A program made the position numbers and the translations under genes. The notes under the pieces were generated by a model that worked only from the letters and a program-made list of their open reading frames with translations, did no database searches and was not told the origin of the DNA. This document shows positions 11,463 through 62,708 of a stretch of DNA of 64,000 nucleotides, one piece after another (positions within the stretch are counted from its first letter, which is position 1; each line of letters starts with the position of its first letter). This stretch comes from Hemiscyllium ocellatum (lineage: Eukaryota), in assembly GCF_020745735.1 (NCBI RefSeq), contig NC_083433.1, positions 2,119,363 to 2,183,362 on the forward strand. The letters run 5' to 3'.

Positions 11463-11881
11463 ACTCTCTCACGTGCACGCACACATACATATAAGTCTAT
11501 GGGGAGAATTTGCCCCATAGCAGAATTATATTTGCAGTTACATTCAATTTTGTTCAAAAAGCACACAATCTGCAGATTTTATTTTGGTCTCTAACCAAGT
11601 TTGTTTCACTGTGAAGCCTCTTCAAAACATGCCCATGTTGAAGACGCTCTCTGCCTCCCTCAGACGAGCACTCACTGATCCCGATTCTCACTGCCACAAC
11701 ACTGTGACCTCCTCTGCCCTCCAGCTCCTCCCAGTAATCAACCAGGTTGTAGCCTCTGTCTGTCTCCACCTATCCCCACCTGACCACCCTGCCCCATCAC
11801 CCCTTTTATCTGCAGCTCCCCCCCACCCACCCCCAGACCTGAAGAAGGGTTATACCTGAAATGTTGGCTTCTCCACCTCCC

Positions 11882-12115
11882 GATGCTGCCTGCCTTGCTG
11901 TGTTCCCCTCCCTCCCGATGCTGCCTGCCTTGCTGTGTCCCTCTCCCTCCTGATGCTGCCTGCCTTGCTGTGTCCCCCTCCCTCCTGATGCTGCCTGCCT
12001 TGCTGTGTTCCCCTCCCTCCTGATGCTGCCTGCCTTGCTGTGTCCCTCTCCCTCCTGATACTGCCTGCCTTGCTGTGTCCCTCTCCCTCCTGATACTGCC
12101 TGCCTTGCTGTGTTC
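11882..12115. repeat. 35-bp tandem repeat x7, amplified from the body of a hammerhead-bearing Penelope repeat (core at 11839)
   Basis: gatgctgcctgccttgctgtg... recurs at 11882, 11917, 11952, 11987, 12022, 12057 and 12092. Confidence 0.9.
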
Positions 12116-13289
12116 TCTCAGCCTCCTGCCTGTCTACACAATCTGTCGGCAGTAGATATTTTTGAAAATCCATGTGATATTTATATATTCCGATTTGGAA
12201 ATAGAATGAAATGAAATCTGACTCAAGAACGGAATATAAACAGATTCTAACCTCACACCTTTAATGCGTTGTCTGAGCTGTGATGTCACTTTGTTTTATA
12301 AAACCTTGTTATCTCAAGAATGTGACTGAAAAGAAGTTCTGGGATTTACATATTAATGAACCGAACCTGTAACCCATTTGGATGGGTATATGAATAGGAA
12401 GGGTTTGGAGGAATATGGGCCGGGTGCTGGCAGGTGGGACTAGATTGGGTTGGGATATCTGGTCGGCATGGACGGGTTGGACCGAAGGGCCTGTTTCCAT
12501 GCTGTACATCTCTATGACACTGTGATCTTTTACTTTAAATTCTGTGTCCTATGATCTTGCCCTAGCTACCTGACAAAGAAACAGCGCTCCGAAAGCTAGT
12601 GCTTCCCTATAAACCTGTTGGACTATAACCTGGTGTTGTGTGATTTTTAACTTTGTCTACCCCAGTCCCACACCAGCTCCTCCACATCATTGAAATATAT
12701 CGCCATTCCTTCACTGTTGCTGGGTCAGACTCCTGGCATTCCCTCTCGAATGGCATTGTAGATCACCTACAGCACATGGACTGCAGTAAGAAGGCAGGTT
12801 CTCACCAAGAGATGGGTAATAAATGATGACCCAGCCAGTGAGACCCACACCTCTGAATGAATTTTAGAAAGATCTGGAATTGGTGTGTGTGTGCTGAGGG
12901 GTGCATCAGTGCCCTGCACTGACCGTGGAGGACAGCACAGTGGAAAGAAGATAATGGGGGTGGGGGAAGCATTATGTGAGGGGTTGAATGGCCCTCTGTG
13001 TTTCTGTGTTTAAGGCTGGGAGGAGATTTGATTAAGAGGTTTCTGGCCAGAGGACATTCGGAGAAACTGCTCCCATCGATGGAAGGATCAGCAAATAGAG
13101 GTTTAAGATGATTGGCTAAAGGGTCAATGGCAGCCTGAGGAAAAAGACCACTTCAATGCAATGATTGGTTCACATGGAGAAGGTCTGACAGTGGGATGGA
13201 GGTGGTTCATAGTCTATAGCGTGGAAACAGACCTTTTAGTCCAACTCATCCATGCCAACCCAAACCGAACCAGCCACACTTAACTGCAT

Positions 13290-16050: not shown

Positions 16051-16378
16051 TGAACAGCAGATATGTTTGAGGGGCTGATTAGCCATTGCCTTGTACTTTT
16101 GGGAACAGGAACTCTTGCTGCAATAAAGTCCATGGGAGCTGGTGAATGTCTGTCTAGCTACACACTGAGGGATGGCCTCTGTTTCCATAGAGTATGGCTG
16201 TGTTCTGCACTCAGTGAATAACTGACTGGAGTATCCTCTCACTGACAGTCAAATTGGGGATCACTCCTTCTTCACTCACACATTTTATATTTAACAAATA
16301 TCACAGCACTCAGATTGTAAAGAGAATGCTGGAATATCCATTATAGCGCGTTAAAGAGAGGCTCTCATTCAAAGTGAG

Positions 16379-16745
16379 TGCTGCGCAGTCAGACGGTCAG
16401 TGCTGAGGGAGTGTCGCACTGTCGGAGGGTCAGTGCTGAGGGAGCGCCGCACTGTCGGAGGGTCAGTGCTGAGGGAGCGCCGCACTGTCGGAGGGTCAAT
16501 GCTGAGGGAGCGCCGCACTGTCGGAGGGTCAGTGCTGAGGGAGCGCCGCACTGTCGGAGGGTCAGTGCTGAGGGAGCGCCGCACTGTCGGAGGGTCAGTG
16601 CTGAGGGAGTGCCGCACTGTCGGAGGGTCAGTGCTGAGGGAGCGCCGCACTGTCGGAGGGTCAGTGCTGAGGGAGCGCCGCACTATTGGAGGTTCAGTGT
16701 TGAGGGAATGCCGCACTGTCGGAGGGTCAGTGCTGACGGGGCGCA
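16379..16745. repeat. 33-bp minisatellite, about 10-11 copies (gagggtcagtgctgagggagcgccgcactgtcg), with an inverted 2-unit copy at about 17000-17075
   Basis: 11-aa periodicity in the ORF track; reverse-complement units at 17000-17075. Confidence 0.93.
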
Positions 16746-17418
16746 GCAGTGTTTTTAAAGCAAAGACATATTTTTGAACAGTAAAGGAATTTGGGGTTAT
16801 GGTGAGAGGGTGAGTAATGGCCTACTCCTGCTCCTTGTTTTCATGTTGTTAAGCTTTGCGACACATTCTGAGCTGATGAAAGGCATTGTATAAATGGAGT
16901 ACCTTTACCTTCCTGAGCCCAGGACACTCTAATTCATTTGTCTGCCAGTGAAATTCTGTTTGAAGTCCCATCATTTTTGTAAAGTTGGAAATACAGCACC
17001 CCCTCAGCACTGACCCTCCGACAGTGCGGCACTCCCTCAGCACTGACCCTCCGACAGTGCGGCACTCCCTCAGCAACCAGCCAGCTCTCACCGATAACGG
17101 TGTGATAACCACCAAGTAATTTGTTTGGCTGATATTGAAACTATATTGAACACAGGGTGTCTAGATGAACACAGATGCTGTTTGGTTTATTAAATGGCTT
17201 TAACTATCCAATCCGAATGATTCTGTGCCTTTGTGAGGAGAATGAACTCACCGGATACAAGGTGGAAAATGTGGGGGATTCCTGCTCAGCTTTGTCTATC
17301 GTGTAAACAGGGCAAATTCAAGCCTCAACAGTCCCAACTTTACACCAGGATAATCATTCACATGTTCCTGAACTCCTCCCCTTTGTAACTGGCATTACAA
17401 ACTGTGTCAGACACTCTG

Positions 17419-18912: not shown

Positions 18913-21900
18913 GTAAGACCGTACCTTGGGGCTCTGCTAAAACTCTCCTGTTCAGCGATGTTCCTGTCACAGCATTCTCAACTCCTTGGTCTGTCTGTGA
19001 GAGCATACTGAGGCTGATCTCCCCTTCCCCTGGAGCTCAGGGTCAGTGCTCCTCAATGGATAACAGCCCTTAAGACCATAAGAGTTGGAGCAGAAATTAA
19101 GCCATTCAGCCCATCGAGTCTGCGCTGCCACTCAATCATGGCTGATAAGTTTCTCAACCTCATTCTCCTGCTTTCTCCCTGTAATCCGTGATCCCCTTGA
19201 TACTCAAATACTTCTCGATCTCAGTCTTAGATATACTCAATGACCAGGGCTCCACAGCCATCTGTGGTGATGAATTCCGTAGATTCCCCACTCTCTGGGT
19301 CAGTTCTCCTCAATGGGATTGCAATGCTGCCCCATGGGTCCACATAAACTGCAGAAGGAGCTCACAGGTCACTGACCACAGCGGTCATCTGTAACTGCAG
19401 CATTACAGAGCCTTGTCTCACTCTCTGGGTCTATACTCAATGGAGTTGAGAAGGGTGAGGTATCATACAGAAGACTGAATGGCCTGGACAGAGTGGATGT
19501 TGGGAAGATGTTTCCGATGGTAGGAGAGATTAGGATCCAAGGGCACAGCCTTAGAGTAAAGGGAAGACCTTTCAGAACGGAGATAAGGGGAAACTTCTTC
19601 AGCCAGAGAGTGGGGAATCGATGGAATTCACAGCCACAGAAGGCTGTGGAGCCCTGGTCATTGAGTATATCTAAGACTGAGATCGAGAGGTTCTGGAGTA
19701 TCAAGGGTGACAGGGAGAAAGCAGGAGAATGGGGTTGAGAAATTTATCAGCCACGCTAGAATGGTGGAGCCGACTCGATGGGCTCAATGGCCTAATTTCT
19801 GCTCCAAATCTTATGGTCTCGTGGACTCTAAACTGATGTGGAGACATTGCCAACTGTATTTCTTTAACAATATGATCAACAATTGATTGACTCTGCTCAC
19901 ACACTGAGATCATCTAACTCAGCTCAATGCTGAAGGCTTTTCAATATATACAGCTCAACATCCCTACCTGTATCACCCTGACCCTGTGTGTAACACTGAC
20001 CCTGAATCAGCCTGACCCTGTGTGTAACACTGACCCTGTATTACTCTGACCCTGTGTGTAACACTAACCCTGTATCACCCTGACCCTGTGTGTAACACAC
20101 TGACCCTGTATCAGCCTGACCCTGTGTGTAACACTGACCCTGTATCAGCCTGACCCTGTGTGTAACACTGACCCTGTATTACTCTGACCCTGTGTGTAAC
20201 ACTAACCCTGTATCACCCTGACCCTGTGTGTAACACACTGACCCTGTATCAGCCTGACCCTGTGTGTAACACTGACCCTGTATCAGCCTGACCCTGTGTG
20301 TAACACTGACCCTGTATTACTCTGACCCTGTGTGTAACACTAACCCTGTATCACCCTGACCCTGTGTGTAACACACTGACCCTGTATCAGCCTGACCCTG
20401 TGTGTAACACTGACCCTGTATCAGCCTGACCCTGTGTCACCCTGACACTAACACACTGACCCTGAATCACTCTGACCCTGTATGTAACACTGACCCTGTG
20501 TCACCCTGACCCTGAATCACTCTGACCCTGTGTGTAACACACTGACCCTGTATCATCCTGACCCCGTGTGTAACACACTGACCCTGTATCACCCTGACCC
20601 TGTGTGTAACACTGACCCTGTATCACCCTGACCCTGTGTGTTATACACTGAGGAGAAAGTGAGGTCTGCAGATGCTGGAGATCAGAGCTGAAAATGTGTC
20701 ACTAGAAAAGCGCAGCAGGTCAGGCAGCATCCAAGGAACAGGAAATTCGACGTTTTGGGCATAAGCCCTTCCTGATGAAGGGCTTATGCCCGAAACGTTG
20801 AATTTCTGTTCCTTGGATGCTGCCTGACCTGCTGCGCTTTTCCTGTAATACACTGACCCTGTATCACCCTGACCCTGTGTGTAACACACTGACCCTGTAT
20901 CACTCTGACCCTGTGTGTAACACTAACCCTGTATCACCCTGACCCTGTGTGTAACACTGACCCTGTATCACACTGACCCTGTGTATAACACTGACACTGT
21001 ATCACCCTGACCCTGTGTGTAACACCCTGACACTGTAAACACCCTGACCCTGTGTGTAATGCTGACCCTGTGTCACCCTGACACTGTGTAACACACTGAC
21101 CCTGTGTGTAACATTGACACTGTGCCACCCTGATCCTGTGTGTAACACTGACCCCATATCACCTTGAACCTGTGTGTAACACAGACTCTGTGACACCCTG
21201 ACCCTGTGTGTAACACTGACCCTGTGTCACCCTGACCCTGTGTGTAACGCTGACCCTGTGTGTAACACAGACCCTGTGACACCCTGACCCTGTGTGTAAA
21301 GCTGACCCTGTGTCACCCTGACCCTGTATCACCCTGATCCTGGGTGTAACACTGATCCTGTGTGTAACGCTGACCCTGTGTCACCCTGACCCTGTGTGTA
21401 ACACTGACCCTGTGTCACCCTGACTCTGTGTGTAACGCTGACCCTGTGTGTAACACAGACCCTGTGACACCCTGACCCTGTGTGTAACGCTGACCCTGTG
21501 TCACCCTGACCCTATGTGTAACACTGACCCTGTATCACCCTGACCCTGGGTGTAACACTGATCCTGTGTGTAATGCTGACCCTGTGTCACCCTGATCCTG
21601 TGTGTAACACTGACCCTGTGTGTAACATTGACACTGTGTCTCCCTGATCCTGTGTGTAACACCCTGACACTGTAAACACCCTGACCCTGTGTGTAACACT
21701 GACCCCATTTCACCTTGACCCTGTGTGTAACACTGACCCTGTGTCACCCTGACCCTGTGTGTAATACTGAACCTGTGTGTAACACGGACCCTGTATCACA
21801 CTGACCCTGTATCACCCTGATCACGTGTGTAACACTGACCCTGTATCACCCTGACCCTGTGTGTAACGCTGACCCTGTGTCACCCTGACCCTGTGTGTAA

Positions 21901-24746
21901 CACTGACCCTGTATCACCCTGACCCTGTGTGTAACGCTGACCCTGTGTCACCCTGACCCTGTGTGTAACGCTGACCCTGTATCACCCTGACCCTGGGTGT
22001 AACACTGATCCTGTGTGTAACGCTGACCCTGTGTGTAACATTGACACTATGTCACCCTGATCCAGTGTGTAACACCCTGATACTGTAAACACCCTGACCC
22101 TGTGTGTAACACTGACCCCGTATCACCTTGACCCTGTGTGTAACACTGACCCTGTGTGTAACGCTGACCCTGTGTCACCCGGACATTGTGTAACACACTG
22201 ACCCTGTGTCACCCTGACCCTGTGTGTAATACTGAACCTGTGTGTAACACGGACCCTGTATTACACTGACCCTGTATCACCCTGACCCTGTGTGTAACAC
22301 TGACCCCGTATCACCTTGACCCTGTGTGTAACACGGACCCTGTATCACACTGACCCTGTACCACCCTGATCACGTGTGTAACATTGACCCTGTATCACCC
22401 TGACCCTGTGTGTAACGCTGACCCTGTGTCACCCCGACATTGTGTAACACACTGACCCTGTGTCACCCTGACCCTGTGTGTAATACTGAACCTGTGTGTA
22501 ACACGGACCCTGTATCACACTGACCCTGTATCACCCTGATCACGTGTGTAACACTGACCCTGTATCATCCTGACCCTGTGTGTAACGCTGACCCTGTATC
22601 ACACTGACACTGTATCACCCTGACCCTGTGTGTAATACTGACCCTGTATCACACTGACCCTGTGTGTAACACTGACCCTGTATCACCCTGTTCCCGTGTG
22701 AAACACACTGACCCTGTGTCACCCTGACCCTGTGTGTAACACTGACCCTGTATCACCCTGTTCCCGTATGTAACACACTGACCCTGTATCACTCTGACCG
22801 TGTGTAACGCTGACCCTGTGTGTAACACACTGACCCTGTGTTAACCTGATCCTGTGTGTAACACACTGACCCTGTGTGTAACACTGACCCTGTATCACCC
22901 TGACCCTGTGTGTAAACTGATCCTGTGTCACCCTGACCCTGTGTGTAACACACTGGCCCTGTATCACCTTGACCCAGTGTGTAACACTGACTCTGTGTGT
23001 AACACTGATCCTGTATCACCCTGATGCCGTGTGTAACACACTGACCCTATGTCACCCTGACCCTGTGTGTAACACTGACCGTGTCACCCTGACCCTGTGT
23101 GTAACACTGACCCTGAATCACCCTGACCCTGTGTGTAACACTGACCTTGTATCACCCTGACCCTGTGTGTAACACTCTCACCCTGTGTGTAACACTGACC
23201 CTGTGACACCCTGACCCTGTGTATAACACCCTGACCATGTGTATAATACTCTGAGCCTGTGTGTTATGCACGTATCTGAGATTATGTTCAGTTTAATTTT
23301 TTGTTTAAAGTTCCCAGTTTAAATGCATTGTAGCCGATGACGTTTAGTGCATAGCTCTCTGCTCCTTTGTACAGGCTGGTTTGATGCGATGAAAAAGACT
23401 GTGAGCAATCCCTCTCTATAGGAAGTTTCTCAGGTGCTCTTCTCTGACCAACTTTGTCCTCTTTCAGATCCTGGCTCCTTCCAGCTCAAGAAATTCTGCA
23501 AAACCTCCGGCTTGGCAAAAAGATCTGTGAAAGAAATTGAGCAAATCTTTGCAATTCTTGATGACGACAAGAGTGGCTTCATTGAGAAAAGTGAACTCAA
23601 GTAGGAACTTATTCACTTCTGTCTAAATGTTAACATAGTACACTGACAGGGTCAAGGACAGGGAATGACCCTGAAGACAGGGAGTGTAACAGGGAAAACG
23701 GGAAAGCTTCACACTGCGATGGATCCTCCCTGTCCTGACAGCTGCTGATAAATGTACTGTAAACACCAGCAGGGTACCCAATGATCACAGCCCAGACGTA
23801 CATATCACACAAATATACACACTCAGCTCCTGACCAACTGTGTTATTCTCTCTTAGGGGTTTGATGCAGGGCTCATCTGATTTTTTTTCATTAAAGGTCG
23901 TTCCTCCAGTATTTCGTTCCTCAGGCCCGTAAGTTGAGTGACTCCGAGATGGACAGTTTTGTATCAGCAGGAGATGCAGATGGAGATGGGAAAATCAATC
24001 TTTCTGGTCAGTGTTTACACCTTTACAAATAACTCACTTATCGTTCAGTTTCTAACCATACGCAGACTTTGCCAGAATTACTGAGACTCTAAGCAGGAGG
24101 GTGTTTATCAGAGAAATGATAGGGATGCACGATTATTTCACAATGTAATTGTGACACAGGTTTGTGTTATTTCCCTCATTTCATTCCACCATCCCAGAAG
24201 GGTCTGACTCTCACTGGGATACAGTTCCTGAAGGGGCTGACTCTCATTGGGATACGGTTCCTGAAGGGGCTGACTCTCACTGGGATACAGTTCCTGAAGG
24301 TACTGACTCTCACTGGGATACAGTGACTGAAGGTACTGACTCTCACTGGGATACAGTTCCTGAAGGGGCTGACTCTCACTGGGATACGGTTCCTGAAGGG
24401 GCTGACTCTCATGGGATACGGTTCCTGAAGGGGCTGTCTCTCACTGGGATACAGTTCCTGAAGGTACTGACTCTCACTGGGATACAGTTCCTGAAGGGGC
24501 TGACTCTCACTGGGATACAGATCCTGAAGGGGCTGATTCTCACTGGGACACAGTTCCTGGAGGGGCTGACTCTCACTGGGGTACAGTTTCTAAATGGTCT
24601 GTAGTCAGTGGGTGTATGTGCTGTGTCTTTATCATTATCACTCCCTAATTCTGGGTTAGGAATGGAACAGAAATTATTGCCAGTAACAAACAAGTGACAG
24701 TAGCTGTCCTGAAATTGCAGAATTCCAGAATCTGCTCACTGCTTAA
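18852..24746 (+). CDS. Oncomodulin/beta-parvalbumin-like EF-hand Ca2+-binding protein, 109 aa; CDS join(18852-18912,23468-23600,23897-24006,24721-24746)
   Basis: Spliced translation MKITDFLLAGDVAAALAECKDPGSFQLKKFCKTSGLAKRSVKEIEQIFAILDDDKSGFIEKSELKSFLQYFVPQARKLSDSEMDSFVSAGDADGDGKINLSEFQNLLTA*. All introns are GT-AG. Exon sizes 61/133/110/26 match the parvalbumin layout. AATAAA at 24908. Confidence 0.95.
19967..23260. repeat. 3.3-kb intronic minisatellite built from ctgaccctgtgtgtaaca and ctgaccctgtatcacc modules (about 33-34 bp composite), interrupted at 20650-20843 by an inverted hammerhead-bearing repeat
   Basis: Directly visible tandem array. Confidence 0.97.
23468..23600 (+). CDS. Parvalbumin-like coding exon 2 (CD EF-hand DDDKSGFIEKSE)
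   Basis: tttcag|ATC ... CTCAA|gtagg; 133 nt. Confidence 0.95.
23897..24006 (+). CDS. Parvalbumin-like coding exon 3 (EF EF-hand DADGDGKINLS)
   Basis: taaag|GTCG ... TCTG|gtcag; 110 nt. Confidence 0.95.
24195..24595. repeat. 33-bp minisatellite x~12 (ctgactctcactgggatacagttcctgaagggg) in the last parvalbumin intron
   Basis: 11-aa periodic ORF DSHWDTVPEGA. Confidence 0.95.
24721..24746 (+). CDS. Parvalbumin-like last coding exon (EFQNLLTA*)
   Basis: ttgcag|AATTCCAG...TAA; poly(A) signal at 24908-24913. Confidence 0.92.
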
Positions 24747-28549: not shown

Positions 28550-30523
28550 CTAATCCACAGTCAATGCGTACACATAAACAAACCTGCTGTCTTGGACTAC
28601 AATCAGATTGTCATCTGGATCAATGGTAAGGACCCGTGGCTTGGAAAGGCCATCGGCCGTGCTCAACAACTGCCTCTTAAAACTTCCCACAGGCGAAAAC
28701 ACCAGGATCCTGTTGGGCTCAGTGACATAGATATTGTCATTTGCATCAACACAAACACTGAAAGGATTAAGAGACCTCTGTATCCCATCCACGAAGCTCT
28801 CACTGCAGACGGTGACAAGGTCTCCGTATCGAGTGAAAATAACAACACATTTCTTCCCACAGTCAGATACAATGAATTCTTCTTCACTGTTCACTGCAAT
28901 GAAGAGAAATCTAATGCCATCATAACCCTTTGGCTTAATCCTGCCAACTACTTGGCCATTGAGATCATACAGAGATACAGAACATAATGTCCCTTCACTC
29001 ACAGCCACATATTCATCCTCATATGCAGCGATAGGGTATGCTGACTCCGAACCTCGGAGGCAAAAGCTTTTCACCAGCGATCCATCCATTTCCAAGTAGT
29101 AAAGCCTGTTTTTGGCAGAACATGCAATAATATTGTCACAGATGGCCACACTGCACGGGTCATCATCTTCATCTGGCAGCGAGATAACCTGATTCAATGA
29201 TCCACCATTCCAGTAACACTTCAGCACCGCATTCTCTTCATCTGCAACAATGATGTCCCCATCTTCCGAACAACAGATGCCTGTCAATTTGGGCATCGTG
29301 TTATACTCCAGCATGGTGTCAAAGTAATATTTCTGAACTGCCCATTGCGTGGGCTGAGCAACAGGCTGGTTTGGTGGCTGGGTTTCTGGAATGTGTGAAG
29401 CCTGCCCAGTACTGGGGACAGTCAGCTCAGACTCAGTTACTGCATCTTCACCCAAGGTGACTGTGAAGAGATGAGTTTCTGATATCATACTCCGGACAGA
29501 TTTGTTAACCATTAGCCTGGGGCAGGATTTGTTTAATTGTTGGATGTTGACTGGCTGCAATGCATGGATCTGATCTTGTATAACGCTCTCCAAACACACC
29601 ATCTCCTTCACATCAGAGCCCATTATAACCCTCACACCAAGTTCTTTCATGCTCTTTGTCTTCTCCTTCTGAAGCTCAAGGTTAGATTTGGCGGCTTTGA
29701 TGAACTCTTCCTGTTTCTTCACACACTCTGAAACAGTTTTTTTGATGGCATCTCCCTGTTTAAACAGCTCGTTTATAACCTCTGTCAGAGTGCTCTCTAA
29801 GCTGGAAATTATAGACAACTCTGTCGTTTTCACTTTGTCCATTGCTTCATTCAGTTCCTCCTCTTGTTGGGCCAGTGACTGGAGGTCAGTGCCGAGTCTT
29901 TCCACAAGTTTTATCACGGTGGGTTTCTTCAGCTTGGCTGCCTCAGCAATCCCAAGCCGTTTGTGTTTGATGCAGTCGTGGGAGTAACATTGCAAACAAA
30001 TGAGTCGGTCACACGTGCTGCAGTAATGACAGACTTGCTTCTTGGGGTGAAATTGGCAGGAGATCCTTTGCTGCAGAATCATCCCTGCATCAGCCTTATC
30101 CAGCGGGGTTGGGGCCAGGTCCAACACCGTGTGGGTGCTGTGGCTAATCCGATGACTGTCCCCACAGGCTCTGCACAGGTAACATGGACAACTGATACAC
30201 TGGGCCACTGCAGGGGTCTTGCCTTTCCAGCCTTGGGGACACAGGCTGCATCTCACTGCCTCCTTCTCCTGGCTTTGTAAGATATCCAGAAGGGAGTTAA
30301 TATGAAAGTTTGTCTTCAAACTGCTAATGCCTGCACTCACGTCAACGATGACCCGACACTCCGGGCAATGGATCTTATTGGCCTTCACCAGCTTTTTCAA
30401 GCATTCTTGGCAGTAGGTGTGTAGACAGGGCAGCATTTTCGGTTGTTCCATTGTATCAAGGCAGATTTTACAATTTAAAATATCACTTTGGATTTTATCA
30501 GTAATAGTGGATGAAGTGGCCAT
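28550..30523 (-). CDS. TRIM56-like E3 ubiquitin ligase (RING, B-boxes, coiled coil, NHL-like repeats), 657 aa, single coding exon
   Basis: RING CKICLD..LPCLHTYCQEC..CPEC; B-box1 CSLC..CISC..LCRAC..H..H; B-box2 CQFH..CSTCDRLICLQC..H..H; heptad coiled coil; NHL repeats (GDIIVAD, EFIVSD, DNIYVTE). First ATG at 30523. Acceptor tttcag at 30539. Poly(A) signals at about 28400 and 28420. No filamin domain. Confidence 0.93.
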   Translation of the reverse strand: MATSSTITDKIQSDILNCKICLDTMEQPKMLPCLHTYCQECLKKLVKANKIHCPECRVIVDVSAGISSLKTNFHINSLLDILQSQEKEAVRCSLCPQGWKGKTPAVAQCISCPCYLCRACGDSHRISHSTHTVLDLAPTPLDKADAGMILQQRISCQFHPKKQVCHYCSTCDRLICLQCYSHDCIKHKRLGIAEAAKLKKPTVIKLVERLGTDLQSLAQQEEELNEAMDKVKTTELSIISSLESTLTEVINELFKQGDAIKKTVSECVKKQEEFIKAAKSNLELQKEKTKSMKELGVRVIMGSDVKEMVCLESVIQDQIHALQPVNIQQLNKSCPRLMVNKSVRSMISETHLFTVTLGEDAVTESELTVPSTGQASHIPETQPPNQPVAQPTQWAVQKYYFDTMLEYNTMPKLTGICCSEDGDIIVADEENAVLKCYWNGGSLNQVISLPDEDDDPCSVAICDNIIACSAKNRLYYLEMDGSLVKSFCLRGSESAYPIAAYEDEYVAVSEGTLCSVSLYDLNGQVVGRIKPKGYDGIRFLFIAVNSEEEFIVSDCGKKCVVIFTRYGDLVTVCSESFVDGIQRSLNPFSVCVDANDNIYVTEPNRILVFSPVGSFKRQLLSTADGLSKPRVLTIDPDDNLIVVQDSRFVYVYALTVD

Positions 30524-30648
30524 CGTGTCATACACAGCCTGAAAGGAAAAGCAGAGTAAAACCTCACCAGGCTGATCTGGAGGAGCTGTGATTCCAGCAG
30601 ACGGCGGCGGCTGACTGTATCTGAACAGATTTCAGTGTAAATTTTGCT

Positions 30649-31469: not shown

Positions 31470-32826
31470 GTAAAAAATGAGGTCTGCAGATGCTGGAGAT
31501 CACAGCTGCAAATGTGTTGCTGGTCAAAGCACAGCAGGCCAGGCAGCATCCTGATGAAGGGCTTATGCTCGAAACGTCGAATTCTCTATTCCTGAGATGC
31601 TGCCTGGCCTGCTGTGCTTTGACTAGCAACACATTTGCAGCTATAAAAAACAGGGTCCAATTCCTCCGTCTCCACCGTATCTGCTCCCAGGAGGACCAGT
31701 TCCACCACAGAACACACCAGATGGCCTCCTTCTTTAGAGACCGCAATTTCCCATCCCACGTGATTAAAGTTGCCCTCCAATGCATCTCGCCCACATCCCG
31801 CACCTCCGCCCTCAGACCCCACCCCTCCAACCGTAACAAGGGCAGAACGCTCCTGGTGCTCACCTTCCACCCTACCAACCTTCGCATAAACAAAATCATC
31901 TGTCGACATTTCCGCTACCTCCAAACAGACCCCACCACCAGGGATATATTTCCCTCTCCACCCCATTCTGCCTTCCACAAACACCGTTCCCTCCGTGACT
32001 ACCTGGTCAAGTCCACACCCCCCTACAACCCACCCTCCCATCCTGGCACTTTCCCCTGCCAACGCAGGAACTGTAAAACCTGTGCTCACACCTCCTCCCT
32101 CACCTCTATCCAAGGCCCTAAAGGAGCCTTCCACATCCATCAACGTTTTACCCTGCACATCCACCAATATCATTTATTGTATCCGTTGCTCTCGATGCGG
32201 TCTCCTCTACATTGGGGAGACTGGGCGCCTCCTAGCGGAGCGCTTTGGGAACATCTCCGGGACACCCGCACCAATCAACCCCACCGCCCCGTGGCCCAAC
32301 ATTTCAACTCCCCCTCCCACTCTGCCGAGGACATGGAGGTCCTGGGCCTCCTTCTCCGCCGCTCCCTCACCACCAGACGCCTGGAGGAAGAACGCCTCAT
32401 CTTCCGCCTCGGAACACTTCAACCCCAGGGCATCAATGTGGACTTCAACAGCTTCCTCATTTCCCCATCCCCCACCTCATCCTAGTTTCAAACGTCCAGC
32501 TCAGCACTCTCCCCATAACTTGTCCGGACTTGTCCGACCTGCCCAACTTCTTTTCCACCTATCCACTCCACCCTCTCCTCCCTGACCTATCACCTTCATC
32601 ACCTCCCACACTCACCCATTGCACTCTATGCTACTCTCTCCCCACTACCCCCCTCCCCAAGCTTATCTCTCCGCCCTTCAGGCTCACTGCCTTTATTCCT
32701 GATGAAGGGCTTTTGCCCGAAATGTCGATTTTACTGCTCCTCGGATGCTGCCTGAACTGCTGTGCTCTTCCAGCACCACTGATCCAGAATCTGGTTTCCA
32801 GCATCTGCAGTCATTGTTTTTACCTT
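31470..32826 (+). mobile_element. Penelope-like retroelement 3' part (RT C-terminus plus GIY-YIG endonuclease, frameshifted) with pLTR-type repeats carrying hammerhead cores at 31551 and 32699
   Basis: QFLRLHRICSQED, LVLTFHP, CKTC, CTSTNIIYCIRCSRCGLLYIGETGR, EERLIFRLGTLQPQGIN. Confidence 0.92.
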
Positions 32827-33450: not shown

Positions 33451-34025
33451 TGATAAGTTGGAAATAGATATAGTGACCATATAGAAAATGGAGCTTAGAA
33501 TGTTAACTAAAATGGCTGAAGCACATTGGCTGTATTGCCCAGCATGCTGAGCAAAACAAATTGCGAACACAGCAACTTGTAAGGATCCTTGCACAGGCTG
33601 GGTAAACATGTCCAATCCCACAGATCTGAGAATGACATAGTACATAGCACTAGGTCAAAGGGCAGCCATCAGAGGAGTACTGGTGCCTTACGGTCTAGCT
33701 GTAACACAGTAATGAGGTTTGAATGTTTACATTTAAAAGCATCTCTGAGATTTGACTGTTATTTTGAAAAGCAAGAGAAAATAATGGGGACTAATGTCTG
33801 ACTTTAAAGATAGTGTTAATATCTTAACCAGATGGCTGCTGGTGTCTGTGTGTTAGATTTAGAGCATTTTTGATGTGTAAGCTTACAATTAAGTATACTT
33901 TGATTAATATGCTTTGCGATAGCTTAATGACACGGGACTCTGTATTGCGTGAGAAGTTATGTATAAATGTAACAACTTTCCCTATCAACGGTGAGAGAAT
34001 CCACTCTTTAGTACCCAGCGTGGTC
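33451..34025 (+). repeat. 5' LTR, truncated at its 3' end (no U5/PBS)
   Basis: Colinear with 40537-41111, one mismatch seen (33565 G vs 40651 T); TATAAA at 33962. Confidence 0.95.
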
Positions 34026-35840
34026 ATCAAGTGCACCCCAGAAGAGATTCGCTTGACACAGAAAGGCCAGTACTCCGTCTGCATTCCAGCACGCTTTTGG
34101 GCACTTTTCCCTGACTCTGACAGTGACACCCAGACCCCTTTTCGATACCCTCCTCATGTAACGCTCTGTTACGATAAGTCAGGAGTTGACCAGAAAAAGG
34201 AGGAAAAGTTTGAATCCTTGCTAGGGAATCAGTATATATTTACACGATTGGCTAAAGTTAATGGGAAACAGGGTACGGCTTGGTACGTTTGGGTGCCACC
34301 AGAGCTGTGGGACCAAGAGCCCGGTATTGCCCCACATCAAACTATCTTAGTTCATAAGGGATATGTAGCAAAGGACTTAGGACCCATGGTAGCACAGGCT
34401 GTGGCCTTGTCAGATCTGAATGTAATGGGGTATCAGGACTTAAGAGACGGCCTTTCCATCGTCTACCTTGACCATCCCGAACCGGTATTGTCCACGCTAC
34501 GGCAGCATGAAGGTGGTTACAGCCAGGTCGAGATTGACCCTGCGGTCTGGGCCACCAACAAGTACTGTGTGGGTTTGGCAAAGGGAATTGCCCCTGTCAG
34601 TGTCATGTTAAGGCCAGGAGCACAGATCTCCAGTATTAAGCAGTATCCTATCAAGAGTCAAGCTGTGGCCCCTCTACGTGGCTTGATTGATCACCTACTG
34701 GCTCAGGGAGTTCTGATCGAGTGTCAATCACAAGCAAACACCCCTATCCTTCCCGTGGCTAAACCAGGTAAACCTGGCGAGTATCGCTTAGTTCAGGATC
34801 TCCGTGAAATTAACAAAATTGTGGTGCCCTTGCACCCTATCGTCCCTAATCCTGCCACCATACTTGCGGCAATCCCTCCAGAGGCCTGTGTGTTCTCCTT
34901 GATAGACCTACAAAATGCCTATGTTGCTATTCCCCTAGCCCCTGACAGCCAATATTTGTTTGCCTTTACCTTTTTGGGCAAGCAATATACATGGACGAGA
35001 CTACCACAGGGATTCTGTGATTCCCCCACAATATTTTCTCAGATCCTCCAAAGGCAACTAGATCAGATCCATTTGCCTTGTCAATCCACCCTAGTACAAT
35101 ACGTGGACGACCTTTTACTTGCCAGCTCTGATGCCCTGTCGAATGAAAAGGATACTAAGCATCTCCTCAACAAGCTGGCTGAGTTAGGTTATGTAGTTAA
35201 CTATGGCAAGGTCGTCGTCAGCCAACGTAAAATTAAATTCCTGGGGGTAGAAATTTCAGCGCATGAGCGTAGGTTGGCCCCGGATAGAATTGGTCCGATT
35301 GTCAATACTCCGGCCCCTACCACGGCTAAGCAGATGAGACGGTTTTTGGGATTAGTTAACTTCTGCAGACAATGGATTCCTAACATTGCCCCCTTAGTAA
35401 AGGTTCTCACTCCCTTTACCACTGAGCGACAGCCCTTCACTCTATCCGAAGCTGCACTTGAGACATTTAACCAGTTGAAGCAGGCGCTAATCAATGCTCC
35501 TGCTTTAGGGAGACCCCTCTATGATAGGCCTTTTCAGCTTTTTGTGGCCAGTACCTCAGGCTGCGCGGTTGCGGTTTTGACGCAGGACCATGGAGATTCC
35601 CGTAGACCGGTGGCATATTTTTCTACTAAGTTGGATTCTGTGATTAGTGGTCAGCCTCATTGTATTCAACAACTGGCTGCTACGTATTTGATGGTGTTGG
35701 CTGCAGCAAACACAACGCTCCAACAACCGGTCACTGTTTTTAGTCCTCATGCAGTAGTTTCTATGTTGGGCCAAATGCAGACGCAACACCTGACATCTGC
35801 CCGCCAGTCTCGGTATGAAATCTTCCTTTTAGGGAACCCC
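34026..35840 (+). pseudogene. pol: ERV pol, intact segment: protease C-terminal remnant, 2H phosphoesterase-like domain, RT and connection
   Basis: Open frame. PHVTL (His at 34155) and PHQTI (His at 34335). RT motifs QYPI, NTPILPVAK, YRLVQDLREIN, LPQG, YVDD (35100), FLGLVNFCRQWI. Confidence 0.93.
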
Positions 35841-36249
35841 TTAGAACATAGAACATAGAAGGATACAGCGCAGTACAGGCCCTTCGGCCCTCGATGTTGC
35901 GCCGACCGAATCCTACCTAACCTATACTAGCCCAATAACTTCCAAATGCCTATCCAATGCCCGCTTAAATGACCATAAAGAAGGAGAGTTCACCACTGAT
36001 ACGGGCAGGGCATTCCATGAACTCACAACCCGCTGTGTGAAGAATCTACCCCTAACATCTGTCCTATACCTACCACCCCTTAATTTAAAGCTATGTCCCC
36101 TAGTAACACCTGCCTCCATTAGCGGTAAAAGGTTCTTAGTATCTACCCTATCTAAACCCCTAATCATCTTATACACTTCTATCAGATCTCCCCTAAACCT
36201 TCTCTTCTCCAATGAGAACAGCCCCAAGTGCCTCAGCCTTTCCTCATAA
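35841..36249 (-). mobile_element. 5'-truncated CR1 inserted in ERV pol
   Basis: YEERLRHLGLFSLEKRRFRGDLIEVYK..FFTQRVV on -; (ttctatg)n tail at 35842. Confidence 0.93.
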
Positions 36250-38040
36250 TATTTGACTTTCAAATATTGTGCAAGTATTAACCCGGCAACTTTTATGTCT
36301 GACATCCCTGCTGAGACTCCTGTCCCCGTTCACGATTGCGCCAACAAAATCATGCTAGACACTAGGCCCAGATTTGACTTGACTGACCGCTCCTTCCCAC
36401 ATCCTGATGTCACTTTGTTCGTGGATGGTAGCTCCTCTGTAAACAAGAATGGAGAAAGGATGGCTGGATATGGTATAGTAGATGCGGGGGGTAGGATTGT
36501 GGAGCAGCATCGCCTCATACCCGCAGTATCCGCTCAGAAAGCTGAATTAATTGCATTAACTAGGGCATGTGAGTTAGTCTCCGGACTTACAGCTAATATA
36601 TATACTGACTCTAGATATGCCTTCGGGGTTGCCCATGATTTTGGGACATCGAGGCTTCCTCACCTCGTCTGGGACCCCTATCGTACACAGGGAGGAAGTC
36701 ATTAATTTGTTACAGGCCATTCAAAGTCCTCGCGAATTGGCCATTATTAAATGTTCCGCGCACTCTGCCGGAACAGATCCGGTTTCTATGGGAAATAAAC
36801 AGGCAGATGAAGTTGCTAAACAGGCTACGGAGCTCCCTGGCTCCTTAATGATGGTTCAGAGGAAATCTATTAGGGCCTCAGTTCCTGACAAGCCGCCTCC
36901 CTCCACCGCTGATATTGTTGCTTTACAGGGGGACGCCCCTGACAATGTACTTCATGAATGGACTGATCTGGGATGTTTCAAGGACGTTGACGGTCTTTGG
37001 TAAACCCCAGCGGGCCAGGTGTGTATGACTGATGTTTTAGCCGTCTGGGTGGTTGATGTTGTCCATCACTTAACACACTGTGGGGCTAGACAAACTGCAG
37101 ATTTAGTCTGGGAATCTTGGTGGCATCCCAGTGTTCTGCAATTGGCTAGAGCACAAACTAAAAAATGCTTGACATGTATGCAGCATAACCCCGGCAAGGG
37201 AGTCCCCTGTGAACAGGGTAGAACCCCGCTGCCTGAAGGCCCTTCGATACGTTGCAAATGGACTTCATTGAGCTACCCAGAACGGCCAAGTGTAAATATG
37301 TTTTAGTTATTGTAGATGTTTTTAGTAAATGGATTGAGGCTTATCCTGCAGCCGATAACAAGGCTGACACTGTTGTTAAGACTTTACTCAAGGAGATTAT
37401 TCCTAGATTTGGTGTGCCGCGGACACTCAGTTCTGATAACGGCCCTCGTTTTGTGGCCCTTGTTAGTCAAGAACTTTGTAAAGTTCTTAATATCAAGCAG
37501 CAGTTCCACTGTGCTTACCACCCTCAGAGCGCGGGAGTGGTGGAACGTGCTAATCAGACCTTGAAATCTAAATTGGCCAAACTGTCAGCTGACAATGGTC
37601 TCTCGTGGCTCCAAAATTTGCCCATTGCCTTGTTTCAACTCCGGGTGTCCCCGGCAGGAGCCCACCGTCTCTCCCTCGCCGAGATTTTGTATGGGCGGCC
37701 CCTCCGCACTCCCTTTAGCTCTGACTTCTCTGATTCTCCTGTTGACATCCATCAGATGTCAGATGGGATGATCTCCTATGTTTTATCCTTAACTGATGCC
37801 TTACGCATGAACCATGCGATGGTTAAAGCTGCCAGGCCTTTGCGGTCGGATTTGCCGTTGCCCCCAAATATCCGACCTGGCACCTTTGTATTGATCAAAA
37901 ACTTTGCCAGAAAGCACGGCCTGGAACCCTGGTGGGAGGGCCCTTTTCAAGTCCTCCTTACCACCCCTACTGCTGTTAAGGTTGAGGGTCGTAAAGCCTG
38001 GATCAGCCTACACCATTGCAAGCTTATTGGGGAGGAATGA
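36250..38040 (+). pseudogene. pol: ERV pol RNase H and integrase, with frameshifts (about 36645 and 37250) and a stop (37001)
   Basis: FVDGSS, SAQKAELIAL, IYTDSRYAFG; HHCC (HHLTH..CLTC); QMDFI, SDNG, ERAN (DDE); WEGPF. Confidence 0.93.
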
Positions 38041-38127
38041 GAATAAAGGGCAGCTACTGCTGTATGTATTTTCTCTTCCCTTGACATAGGTGCCACTAAG
38101 GAAGGAAGACTGAAGAAAAGTGAAACG

Positions 38128-40505
38128 ATGAAACCTACCCTCTTTCTCTTTGGCCTCTGCCTAACAGCGACATGGACATCAATGCAGACCAGTAACACCA
38201 CCAGCGGCGCACCCCCTACTCTCCAAGGGCCTACAAGCAACTCTAGTGCAGCCACCGCGGAGACGTGGATAAAAACAGGCACCCCCGCGATGACTTCACA
38301 CTCTACAGATGTTACTACTAAAATGACTAATGGTTTTGTGAGTATGGCACCACGTATTGCTTCTGATGGCCCCATTGGTACAGTAATAGTCCCGAGGGAT
38401 CTTGTGAGTACTATGAGTGACAATATGACTATTAGCACCCCCCCCAATGAGTTTATCACTGCCCAGAGTGATAGGTACCCAGTCTAATAATATAAGTGAG
38501 TCCAGTCAGACCCTAGTTACCCCTTGCAACCTCATCAGGGATTGGTGGGTGTGGAGACAGGAGACTAGCATAACGCTGAATAACACAGGCCCCACGAGAA
38601 TAGTTCAGGTCAGAGTGAATGCCACGTGTGATCGTCATGGCCCAGGTAACAGTGGGTTTAACCAGACAATTTGTCCCTTGGTCGGTTTTCCTGACTTCTC
38701 AGGCCACTTCTAATTATAGCAGCATAGTCGTCCAAAATATTGCCTGGTCACAGGATTGCGTAGAGCATTTGCAAAACCTAACAGGACTTCAACAGTGGTG
38801 CCCTGGATATAATATTACAATTCTGGATGCCAGGACAGAATGTCCCTGTAATATAACAATTCATAATACTGGCATCTGCCAGGAAGTAATGTATGTATGC
38901 CTACGAGGAAATGGCACCAAATCCGAGGATACCTATACTTACTTAAATGATACACGCACGTGCTGCCATGCCTTTGTGAATAATACTGCAGCGGACCCCA
39001 GAGACTATTTGTTCAACTTTCCCGGTTACTTAAAATCAAAAAATCTCGCCCGCACACTGTACCGTTTTCTTAAGACCCACCGAAAGAAAAGAAGCAATTT
39101 ACCGGAAGCAACGAGCCTTACCGGCAACATCTTTACTGGCTTCCTTGAAAAAGTAAAAACTCATCTTGACAATCAGACTGATGAAGGAAAGAATACCAAA
39201 GTAGTCTGTGTCCCAGGCCCACACTCGGTAGGGTCCGGATTCCTCATGATGGCGGCCCCTACTGGTCAGGATGAATTATGCAGTCTTACCTACAGGCGTA
39301 CCCAACAAACCCCAAAAATTATTCCCTATAGAGACATTTCTGACCAATACCCAATCCAGTATGGTTACCTCAGGCGTTGCTATGACACCTGGCAAGTGGT
39401 ACCAAAAGGTTTTGTAGTAGCGGTGGTGCCAGAATTTAAATGGTGCATTCATAGTGATACAGGAAAACATGCCATGGGAGACTTAGAAGACAGTAGATGC
39501 CAGGTAATAATATCTCATGATCAAACCAAGTCAGACCCCTTTGGGGGCCTCCCGGAGGACGATTGGGACCTTTGTGTTAATGAAAAGACTCGTCCCGACG
39601 CCCCTACAAGCCGCATGGGTGCTGTCCTCTTCCATGCTAAACACTGTATTACGCCTGCACTTAACGGGACATTTTAGTTATGCAATCACACAGCCTATGA
39701 ATACCTACCCATTAACTTTAAGGGCACCTGTGCGTTGATATATCACCTCCCAGCATTCCGGTTATTGAATTCAACCCCAGAGGTTAACAGCGAATGGAAG
39801 AAGTGGCATGATCTTAATTCAAATTACAAACCTCATGCTTGAGGCAGGAGAGATCTGTTCCACCAACAGACATTTTGGAGCAGATTCTTTGGCGCCCTTC
39901 TGCCCAATTATGGGGTCATGCAAGCTCTGGACCAGATTCGTGATCTCAGTCACGAGCTTGAGGAAATGGCTAAGGCCACTGCTGATGCCCTGGGTCATTT
40001 GGAACACGAGCAGACTGCCCTGTGAATGATGACCTTACAGAATAGGATGGCTTTAGATTATCTCTTAGCAAGCCAAGGGGGAGCATGTGCAGTTATTGGC
40101 CCGGAGTATTGTACCTATATTGAGGATGAGAGCTCGGCTGTATATAATGACACTTCACTAATTAACGATGTTGCCACTAAAGCATATGATCTGGACCACA
40201 CAGACTCAAAGGAGACCTGTGCCTGGTGGAACCTACTGTGTCAGCTGTTGGGATGGCTAAAGTCTATTGGGCTGGACATTCTCTCCATTCTGGCCATCAT
40301 TCTTGGCATTTGTATTAGTATCCGAATCGCTTGGGCCCTTATTAAGAGAAGTTGTCAAACTTGTCCCGCATGACGCCGATGTAGAAAGGAGACAAGCCCA
40401 ATATGGACACAGGAGGAAGGATTGACACCTACACTTTTGACTGATGGCAATTTAGATGTAGAAACAGAAAAAGAGTTTGCTCGACTTCAACGTATTAATA
40501 TTTGA
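38128..40505 (+). pseudogene. env: ERV env with 2 frameshifts and 3-4 in-frame stops
   Basis: Splice acceptor at 38089; signal peptide MKPTLFLFGLCLTATWTS; S/T-rich stalk; RKKR at 39081; (R)GRR at 39840-39851; ISD LQNRMALDYLLASQGGAC; CX6YC; TM anchor; frame stays open from the TGA at 40371 to the TGA at 40503. Confidence 0.9.
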
Positions 40506-40536
40506 AGGTTATCATAAAATGATAAAAAGGGAGGAA

Positions 40537-41262
40537 TGATAAGTTGGAAATAGATATAGTGACCATATAGAAAATGGAGCTTAGAATGTTAACTAAAATG
40601 GCTGAAGCACATTGGCTGTATTGCCCAGCATGCTGAGCAAAACAAATTGCTAACACAGCAACTTGTAAGGATCCTTGCACAGGCTGGGTAAACATGTCCA
40701 ATCCCACAGATCTGAGAATGACATAGTACATAGCACTAGGTCAAAGGGCAGCCATCAGAGGAGTACTGGTGCCTTACGGTCTAGCTGTAACACAGTAATG
40801 AGGTTTGAATGTTTACATTTAAAAGCATCTCTGAGATTTGACTGTTATTTTGAAAAGCAAGAGAAAATAATGGGGACTAATGTCTGACTTTAAAGATAGT
40901 GTTAATATCTTAACCAGATGGCTGCTGGTGTCTGTGTGTTAGATTTAGAGCATTTTTGATGTGTAAGCTTACAATTAAGTATACTTTGATTAATATGCTT
41001 TGCGATAGCTTAATGACACGGGACTCTGTATTGCGTGAGAAGTTATGTATAAATGTAACAACTTTCCCTATCAACGGTGAGAGAATCCACTCTTTAGTAC
41101 CCAGCGTGGTCTAAGTGGCTTTTCTCCCAGGATTGTTTGTATATTCGTATACTGACAGTCTTGAATAAAAACAGTGCTGTTGAAATGTGTTAATCAAGTG
41201 GTGGTTCTCTGTTCTTGGACAGGCGTTCACAGGAAGCCAGGTAACGTGGCTGAGCTTTCACA
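40537..41262 (+). repeat. 3' LTR, full length 726 bp
   Basis: Follows the PPT; TATAAA at about 41048; AATAAA at 41164; ends ...ctttcaCA before the TSD. Confidence 0.95.
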
Positions 41263-46869: not shown

Positions 46870-48095
46870 TCATGCCCCAGGGTGCACCTCCATACCCAGG
46901 GTACACCCCCATGCCCCAGGGTGCACCTCCATACCCAGGGTACACCCCCATGCCCCAGGGTATAGCCCCCATGCCCCAGTGTACATGTCCGTGCTCCAGG
47001 TTACACTTACCTAGGATACACCCCCAAGCACCAGGATACACTCACCCAGGGCACACCCTCATGTCCCAGGTGACACTCACCCAGTGTACAATGTCATGCC
47101 CCTGGGTTCACTCATACAGAGTGCACCACCATTACACCTGGAACACCCAGACAGGGATACCTCCATCCCCTGGGCACACTCACCAGGGTACAACCCCATG
47201 CCCTATGGTACACTCACCCAGGATACATCCTCATGGTCCACGGTACACCCCAATGCCACATGGTACTCTTACCCAGGGTACGCCTCCATGCCCCAGGGTA
47301 CACTCACCCAGGGTTCACTCCCATGACTCAGGTGACACTCACCCAGCGTACAATGTCATGCCTCTGGGTACACTCATACAGAGTGCACCACCATGACACC
47401 TGAACACCCATGCAGGGATACACCCATGCCCCTGGGTACACTCATACAGAGTGCACCACCATGACCCCTGGAACACCCACACAGGGATACCTTCATCCCC
47501 TGGGCACACTCACCAGGGTACAACCCCATGCCCTATGGTATACTCACCCAGGATACATCCTCATGGTCCAGGGTACACCCCAATGCCACATGGTACTCTT
47601 ACCCAGGGTACCCCTCCATGCCCCAGGGTACACTCACCCAGGGTTCACCCCCATGCTCCATGGTACACTCACCCAGGGCACACCCTCATGACTCAGGTGA
47701 CACTCACCCAGCGTACAATGTCACCCTGGGTACACTCATACAGAGTACACCTCCATGACACCTGAACACCCATGCAGGGATACACCCATGTCCCTGGGCA
47801 CACTCATCCAGGGTACATCCTTATGGTCCCCGTGTACCCTCACCCAGGGTACACCCTCATAGCCCTGTGTACACTCACCCAGGGTACACCCTCATAGCCC
47901 TGTGTACACTCACCCAGGGTACACCCCCATGCTCCATGGTGCACTCACCCAGGGTACACCCCCATGCTCCATGGTACACTCCCATGTCCCAGGGTACACC
48001 CCCATGCTCCATGGTGCACTCACCCAGGGTGCACCCCCATGCTCCATGGTGCACCCCCATGTCCCATGGTGCACCCCCATGTCCCAGGGCACAGC
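46870..48095. repeat. Complex C-rich minisatellite (cacccagggtacacccccatg...) directly upstream of DDX47, with higher-order duplications
   Basis: Visible tandem modules; 47110-47400 is duplicated at about 47440-47760. Confidence 0.9.

Positions 48096-48180: not shown

Positions 48181-62708
<14,528 letters not shown>

Follow-up and report, generated by a model that had tools for sequence, protein, structure and literature searches.

A provirus of the shark Hemiscyllium ocellatum carries, between the protease and the reverse transcriptase (RT) of its pol gene, an insert that is predicted from its fold, motifs and position to be a compact CNPase-type 2H phosphoesterase. The provirus lies in a stretch of 64,000 nucleotides of contig NC_083433.1 (positions 2,119,363 to 2,183,362, forward strand), which we call the window and whose numbering is used throughout. 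An original prediction, made from the letters of the window alone, had placed about 150 extra residues with paired His-x-Thr motifs between a protease tail (VIKCTPEEI) and the RT start (IDPAVWA, 34533). The insert was found to be 161 codons long, and the motif pair was confirmed in frame with the RT: one open frame (33828-35858) holds both motifs and the RT, and the His codons at 34155 and 34335 are 60 codons apart and followed by AKDLGPMV at 34368. The assignment of VIKCTPEEI to the protease also held, since the full protease of sister copies ends there and an upstream protease match was present in 29 of 30 close copies. The features of the insert are as follows.

34071..34514 (+): predicted CNPase-like 2H phosphoesterase domain, residues 8-155 of the model
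34155..34172 (+): first His-x-Thr motif (H36, T38) with the aromatic Y41, in PPHVTLCY; counterpart of CNPase H230/T232/F235
34335..34343 (+): second His-x-Thr motif (H96, T98), in APHQTILV; counterpart of CNPase H309/T311
34368..34409 (+): AKDLGPM loop and helix 107-120, the helix being seen in the model; corresponds in CNPase to the beta5-alpha7 loop followed by alpha7

Predicted fold and motifs

When the predicted structure was compared with AKAP7, NS2, CNPase and Acb1, the model showed a 2H fold, and its 12 best VIA rows were all 2H proteins. The nearest structural neighbor of the model was CNPase, on which it superposed over 146 residues, a superposition that would place the two histidines in one cleft. 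The proposal of a 2H phosphoesterase-like domain stood as a 2H fold of the CNPase type, but the closest fold was neither that of the viral 2',5'-phosphodiesterase (PDE) group (NS2, AKAP7 and the C-terminal domain of rotavirus VP3, VP3-CTD) nor that of Acb1 and the poxvirus cyclic GMP-AMP (cGAMP) PDE. The Pfam Acb1 model gave a weak, sub-cut-off match at motif 1 (E 0.026). Passages of PMC4643303 describe the loop that follows motif 2, together with helix alpha7, as a CNPase feature, and G111 of the insert sits at the offset of CNPase G324. On the basis of the model, the domain is placed in a CNPase/Trl1 cyclic phosphodiesterase (CPD)-like subgroup; in family profile, key residues and N-terminal architecture it departs from vertebrate CNPase proper (PF05881).

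The motif pair was also compared with chance by shuffling the segment 100,000 times. Of these shuffles, 3,753 gave a bare H-x-T/S pair and 35 a pair in hydrophobic context with a spacing of 50-110. Because the stricter pattern was written after the sequence had been seen, the motif pair lends modest weight by itself, and the case rests on conservation and fold.

Conservation and relatives

A search of the host genome gave 131 matches to the domain among 150 scored candidates, about 40 of them from its own family and 90 at 24-43% identity. Sequences were fetched for the 30 best matches and for 60 from the diverged set, and among these 90 loci the RT was found downstream in 80, the protease upstream in 83 and either of the two in 89. 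At 50% domain identity the fetched copies formed 10 groups (13-15 at 55-60%), whose representatives were 10-40% identical. All four catalytic residues were present in 28/30 close copies and in 31/60 diverged, decayed copies. Counted singly in the diverged copies, H36 was kept in 50/60, T38 in 43/60, H96 in 54/60 and T98 in 55/60, at a median column conservation of 38%; Tyr or Phe occurred at Y41 in 52/60, Lys or Arg at position 108 in 50/60, and G111 was kept in 47/60. Both motifs are intact in the window copy, as had been predicted, and its relatives largely keep them.

The search of protein databases returned 21 matches, one of which was discarded as chance. The named relatives are from skates, catshark, devil ray, catfish, pipefish and killifish, the first three being the closest. 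In the database rows, which were gathered by similarity and are therefore biased towards motif carriers, the first His and Thr were present in 17/17 and the second His in 16/17. Between two subgroups of the window's own family, the ratio of nonsynonymous to synonymous differences (pN/pS) was 0.37 for the domain (codon bootstrap 0.22-0.63), 0.14 for the RT and 0.19 for the protease, showing that the domain is under purifying selection that is looser than that on the RT. We take the domain to be a regular component of the Pol of many epsilon-like retroviruses of fish.

This kind of domain has been known in fish retroviruses since 2002, and the window domain is a further member. Passages of PMC9503650, citing Mazumder 2002, report 2H domains in fish retroviruses including walleye dermal sarcoma virus (WDSV); passages of PMC4977317, citing Basta 2009, report that epsilon-like fish endogenous retroviruses (ERVs) encode CNPase or macro domains. 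The first of the two parts of the elephant-shark ERV paper PMC4422223 does not mention the domain, nor do the passages of PMC3185748. No functional test of the fish-retrovirus domain was found in searches of the literature outside subscription papers and supplements.

The top three matches in a library of viral structures were all large polyproteins of retroviral size: Q9WHI8 of walleye epidermal hyperplasia virus 1 (WEHV-1; E 3e-09), Q2VF30 and A4GTG3 of WDSV. The window domain lies in frame in an epsilon-like Pol, after the protease and before the RT, and the structure-library match suggests homology to the WDSV and WEHV-1 region; the differences are the cartilaginous-fish host and an identity of 15-20%. 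Ranks 4-6 of the same library (TM 0.56-0.67) were the stand-alone proteins A0A516LHL6 and A0A516LSI7 (153-154 residues) and a Sylvanvirus protein. Such small stand-alone viral proteins are possible relatives that would be useful for tracing the origin of the domain.

The catalytic domain of vertebrate CNPase/RICH (PF05881; 2xmi, 1woj, 2i3e) has about 215 residues, compared with about 145 in the ERV domain, which lacks the Arg at His2-2, has Lys or Arg for V321 and is without the N-terminal polynucleotide kinase-like domain. The nearest clusters by language-model features were fungal Trl1-type CPD (PF08302) and small viral relatives (137-158 residues), and 6u05 was found with Foldseek; unlike Trl1, the ERV domain has no ligase or kinase module and is embedded in Pol. 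AKAP7 and the viral immune-evasion 2H proteins (mouse hepatitis virus NS2, rotavirus VP3-CTD, Acb1 and the penguinpox cGAMP PDE) share the superfamily fold and motifs, and the viral ones share the viral setting.

The provirus and its neighborhood

The provirus spans 33451-41262 and is flanked on both sides by a 4-base target-site duplication. Its parts outside the domain are listed below (LTR, long terminal repeat).

33451..34025 (+): 5' LTR, truncated to 575 of 726 bases by deletion of its 3' part; TATA box at 33962
34020..34049 (+): remnant of the protease C-terminus, fused with the LTR over a few bases common to both; the same residues end the full protease in sister copies
34533..35840 (+): RT and connection region, in the frame of the domain and starting IDPAVWA; Pfam RVT_1 (E 1.4e-27) and RT_RNaseH_2
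~35845..36250 (-): interspersed-repeat insertion splitting pol, of repeat families D12/D13; a gap in the match to skate Pol P0002
36250..38040 (+): RNase H and integrase, with frame changes and one stop; Pfam RNase_H, rve and MLVIN_C in separate frames
38128..40373 (+): env in several frames, from the list of open reading frames; its final piece matches Pfam TLV_coat (E 1.4e-06)
40537..41262 (+): 3' LTR, complete, 726 bases, from LTR matching

The RT region matched P0002 with 52.6% identity over residues 105-703, and the repeat that interrupts the match resembles what we take to be a 3' fragment of a long interspersed nuclear element. The original prediction had overlooked the fusion to the LTR and the reduction of the protease, of which about the last 10 codons are all that is left. 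Compared with one sister copy, 2,951 bases have gone, comprising U5, the primer site, gag and most of the protease. The first in-frame ATG downstream of the TATA box lies beyond both motifs, and because of this, the deletion, the broken pol and the env in pieces, the window copy is defective and unlikely to yield the domain. As a locus it is a dead provirus of an ordinary kind, and the interest lies in the virus family.

The 726-base LTR has full-length matches at other places in the genome. The two LTRs of the window copy differ by 1 mismatch over the shared 575 bases despite the insertion, frame changes and stops in pol and env and the 2,951-base deletion, which points either to a genome that was damaged before its recent insertion or to LTR homogenization. 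Near-identical ERV copies with common lesions were also seen (L004/L005, L012/L013/L017, L019/L020 and L072/L078/L080), which suggests segmental duplication of proviruses, not reinfection.

A single-exon gene with RING, B-box, coiled-coil and NHL regions lies at 28550-30631 (-), head to head with the provirus, and starts about 2.8 kb from the 5' LTR; its best solved match is the TRIM56 RING (E 4.7e-24). TRIM56 is an antiviral ligase acting on cGAS/STING, and the position of this TRIM56-like gene beside the provirus is probably a coincidence. What is presumably the terminal part of a Penelope-type element, including its GIY-YIG-like nuclease, is seen in overlapping frames at 31481-32585 (+). 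Minisatellite arrays with units of 29-35 bases occur at 11841-12155, 16307-16818, 19923-22027, 24116-24667, 46967-48082 and 48431-49061.

Possible function and its alternatives

By analogy with CNPase, the domain on balance probably opens 2',3'-cyclic phosphates to a 2'-phosphate and a 3'-OH, its substrate being either the 3' ends of RNA or free 2',3'-cyclic nucleoside monophosphates. As general retroviral biology suggests, it would be made with Pol through read-through of the gag stop; in sister copies, a stop codon stands immediately 5' of the protease. The domain would be packaged at low copy, freed by the viral protease and delivered to the next cell along with the genome or core, and some other retroviruses carry a dUTPase in a similar fashion. 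Its likeliest use would be the clearing of cyclic ends after host metal-independent nucleases have cut the viral RNA or the tRNA primer, and the cleared ends would thereby be withdrawn from RTCB ligation and from sensing. Endosomal TLR7/8 sense RNA fragments with cyclic ends as well as 2',3'-cyclic nucleotides, although a literature search listed no single paper covering the whole of this link. According to passages of PMC13247085 and PMC5434554, CNP takes 2',3'-cyclic ends out of RTCB ligation and can substitute for the CPD module of yeast Trl1. Since CNP acts on RTCB substrates, a copy carried by the virus could shield the ends of cut genome or primer, dampen the splicing of XBP1, or clear away the cyclic products that are sensed.

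Several observations weigh against this interpretation. The identity between the domain and CNPase is just 14%, and in single-sequence searches the gapless matches to host CNP score poorly at both motif 1 (E 0.062) and motif 2 (E 0.037). PF05881 matched the host CNP gene and none of the 49 aligned members or ERV copies. CNPase R307 is not kept (A, S, V or I; A94 here), V321 is replaced by Lys or Arg (K108 here), and the motif spacing is 60, compared with 79 in CNPase. The host genome already carries CNP, which leaves the benefit of a further, viral copy to be explained. The fold does not reveal the substrate, and the enzymatic role is predicted from the model. The domain also evolves faster than the RT (pN/pS 0.37 vs 0.14), with identities to four other Pol proteins of 29-45% compared with 35-58% for the RT; a changed substrate or host conflict fits this as well as loose constraint does.

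cGAS senses retroviral DNA, and the CNPase scaffold might have been retooled to cut cyclic dinucleotides (2'3'-cGAMP), thereby blunting cGAS-STING sensing of reverse transcripts; this was the main idea of the original prediction. STING is present in the host genome, and other viral 2H enzymes cleave cGAMP, as the structure titles of Acb1 (7t27) and the penguinpox PDE (9bkq) state. The basic residue at position 108, replacing V321, could bind a second phosphate, and the weak Acb1 match falls at motif 1. The match is under the cut-off and the fold is not closest to either enzyme, and we regard this function as unlikely.

Host CNP restricts HIV-1 assembly, and a non-catalytic role, as an RNA- or nucleotide-binding spacer or as a decoy against host CNP, would agree with the faster change of the domain and with the differences at several CNPase substrate-binding residues. 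However, in groups that are only 10-40% identical, the catalytic residues, four in all, rank with the best-conserved columns, as expected of an enzyme that is active, and such a role is improbable.

Destruction of 2',5'-oligoadenylate (2-5A), as by coronavirus NS2, rotavirus VP3-CTD and AKAP7, is the weakest option of the original prediction and is very improbable. OAS genes exist in the host (a cluster of about three at G000:C59:18296037-18357854 and an OAS-like locus at G000:C2:58010075-58017411), but RNase L was not found by an exon-wise search of limited reach, in which both KEN matches among 48 scored candidates were IRE1. The domain also persists in viruses of teleosts, which are not known to have the OAS-RNase L pathway. 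Least of all do we expect an ADP-ribose 1'',2''-cyclic phosphate (Appr>p) phosphodiesterase partnering the macro domains that certain fish ERVs are reported to carry, since no macro domain was among the Pfam matches of the scanned provirus pieces (gag is deleted here) and the fold score was no better than that of background 2H proteins.

The question is thus narrowed, as the fold favors chemistry on 2',3'-cyclic phosphates over 2-5A. Conserved and under selection, the domain is part of Pol across about ten ERV groups within a single cartilaginous-fish genome, and its small size and good fold make it amenable to assay. A tentative and rather doubtful extension is that it is a virion-carried immune-evasion enzyme, of an age that lets shark, ray and bony-fish viruses share it, that would accompany the RNA genome and destroy nucleotide danger signals at entry; its targets would be 2',3'-cyclic nucleotides or cyclic-ended RNA (TLR7/8), or cGAMP through a pocket with the conserved Lys. 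If true, retroviral Pol would encode an antagonist of the innate sensing that relies on nucleotides. A domain that erases innate-immune nucleotides would be a new enzyme class in retroviral Pol and would show which defense early vertebrate retroviruses faced.
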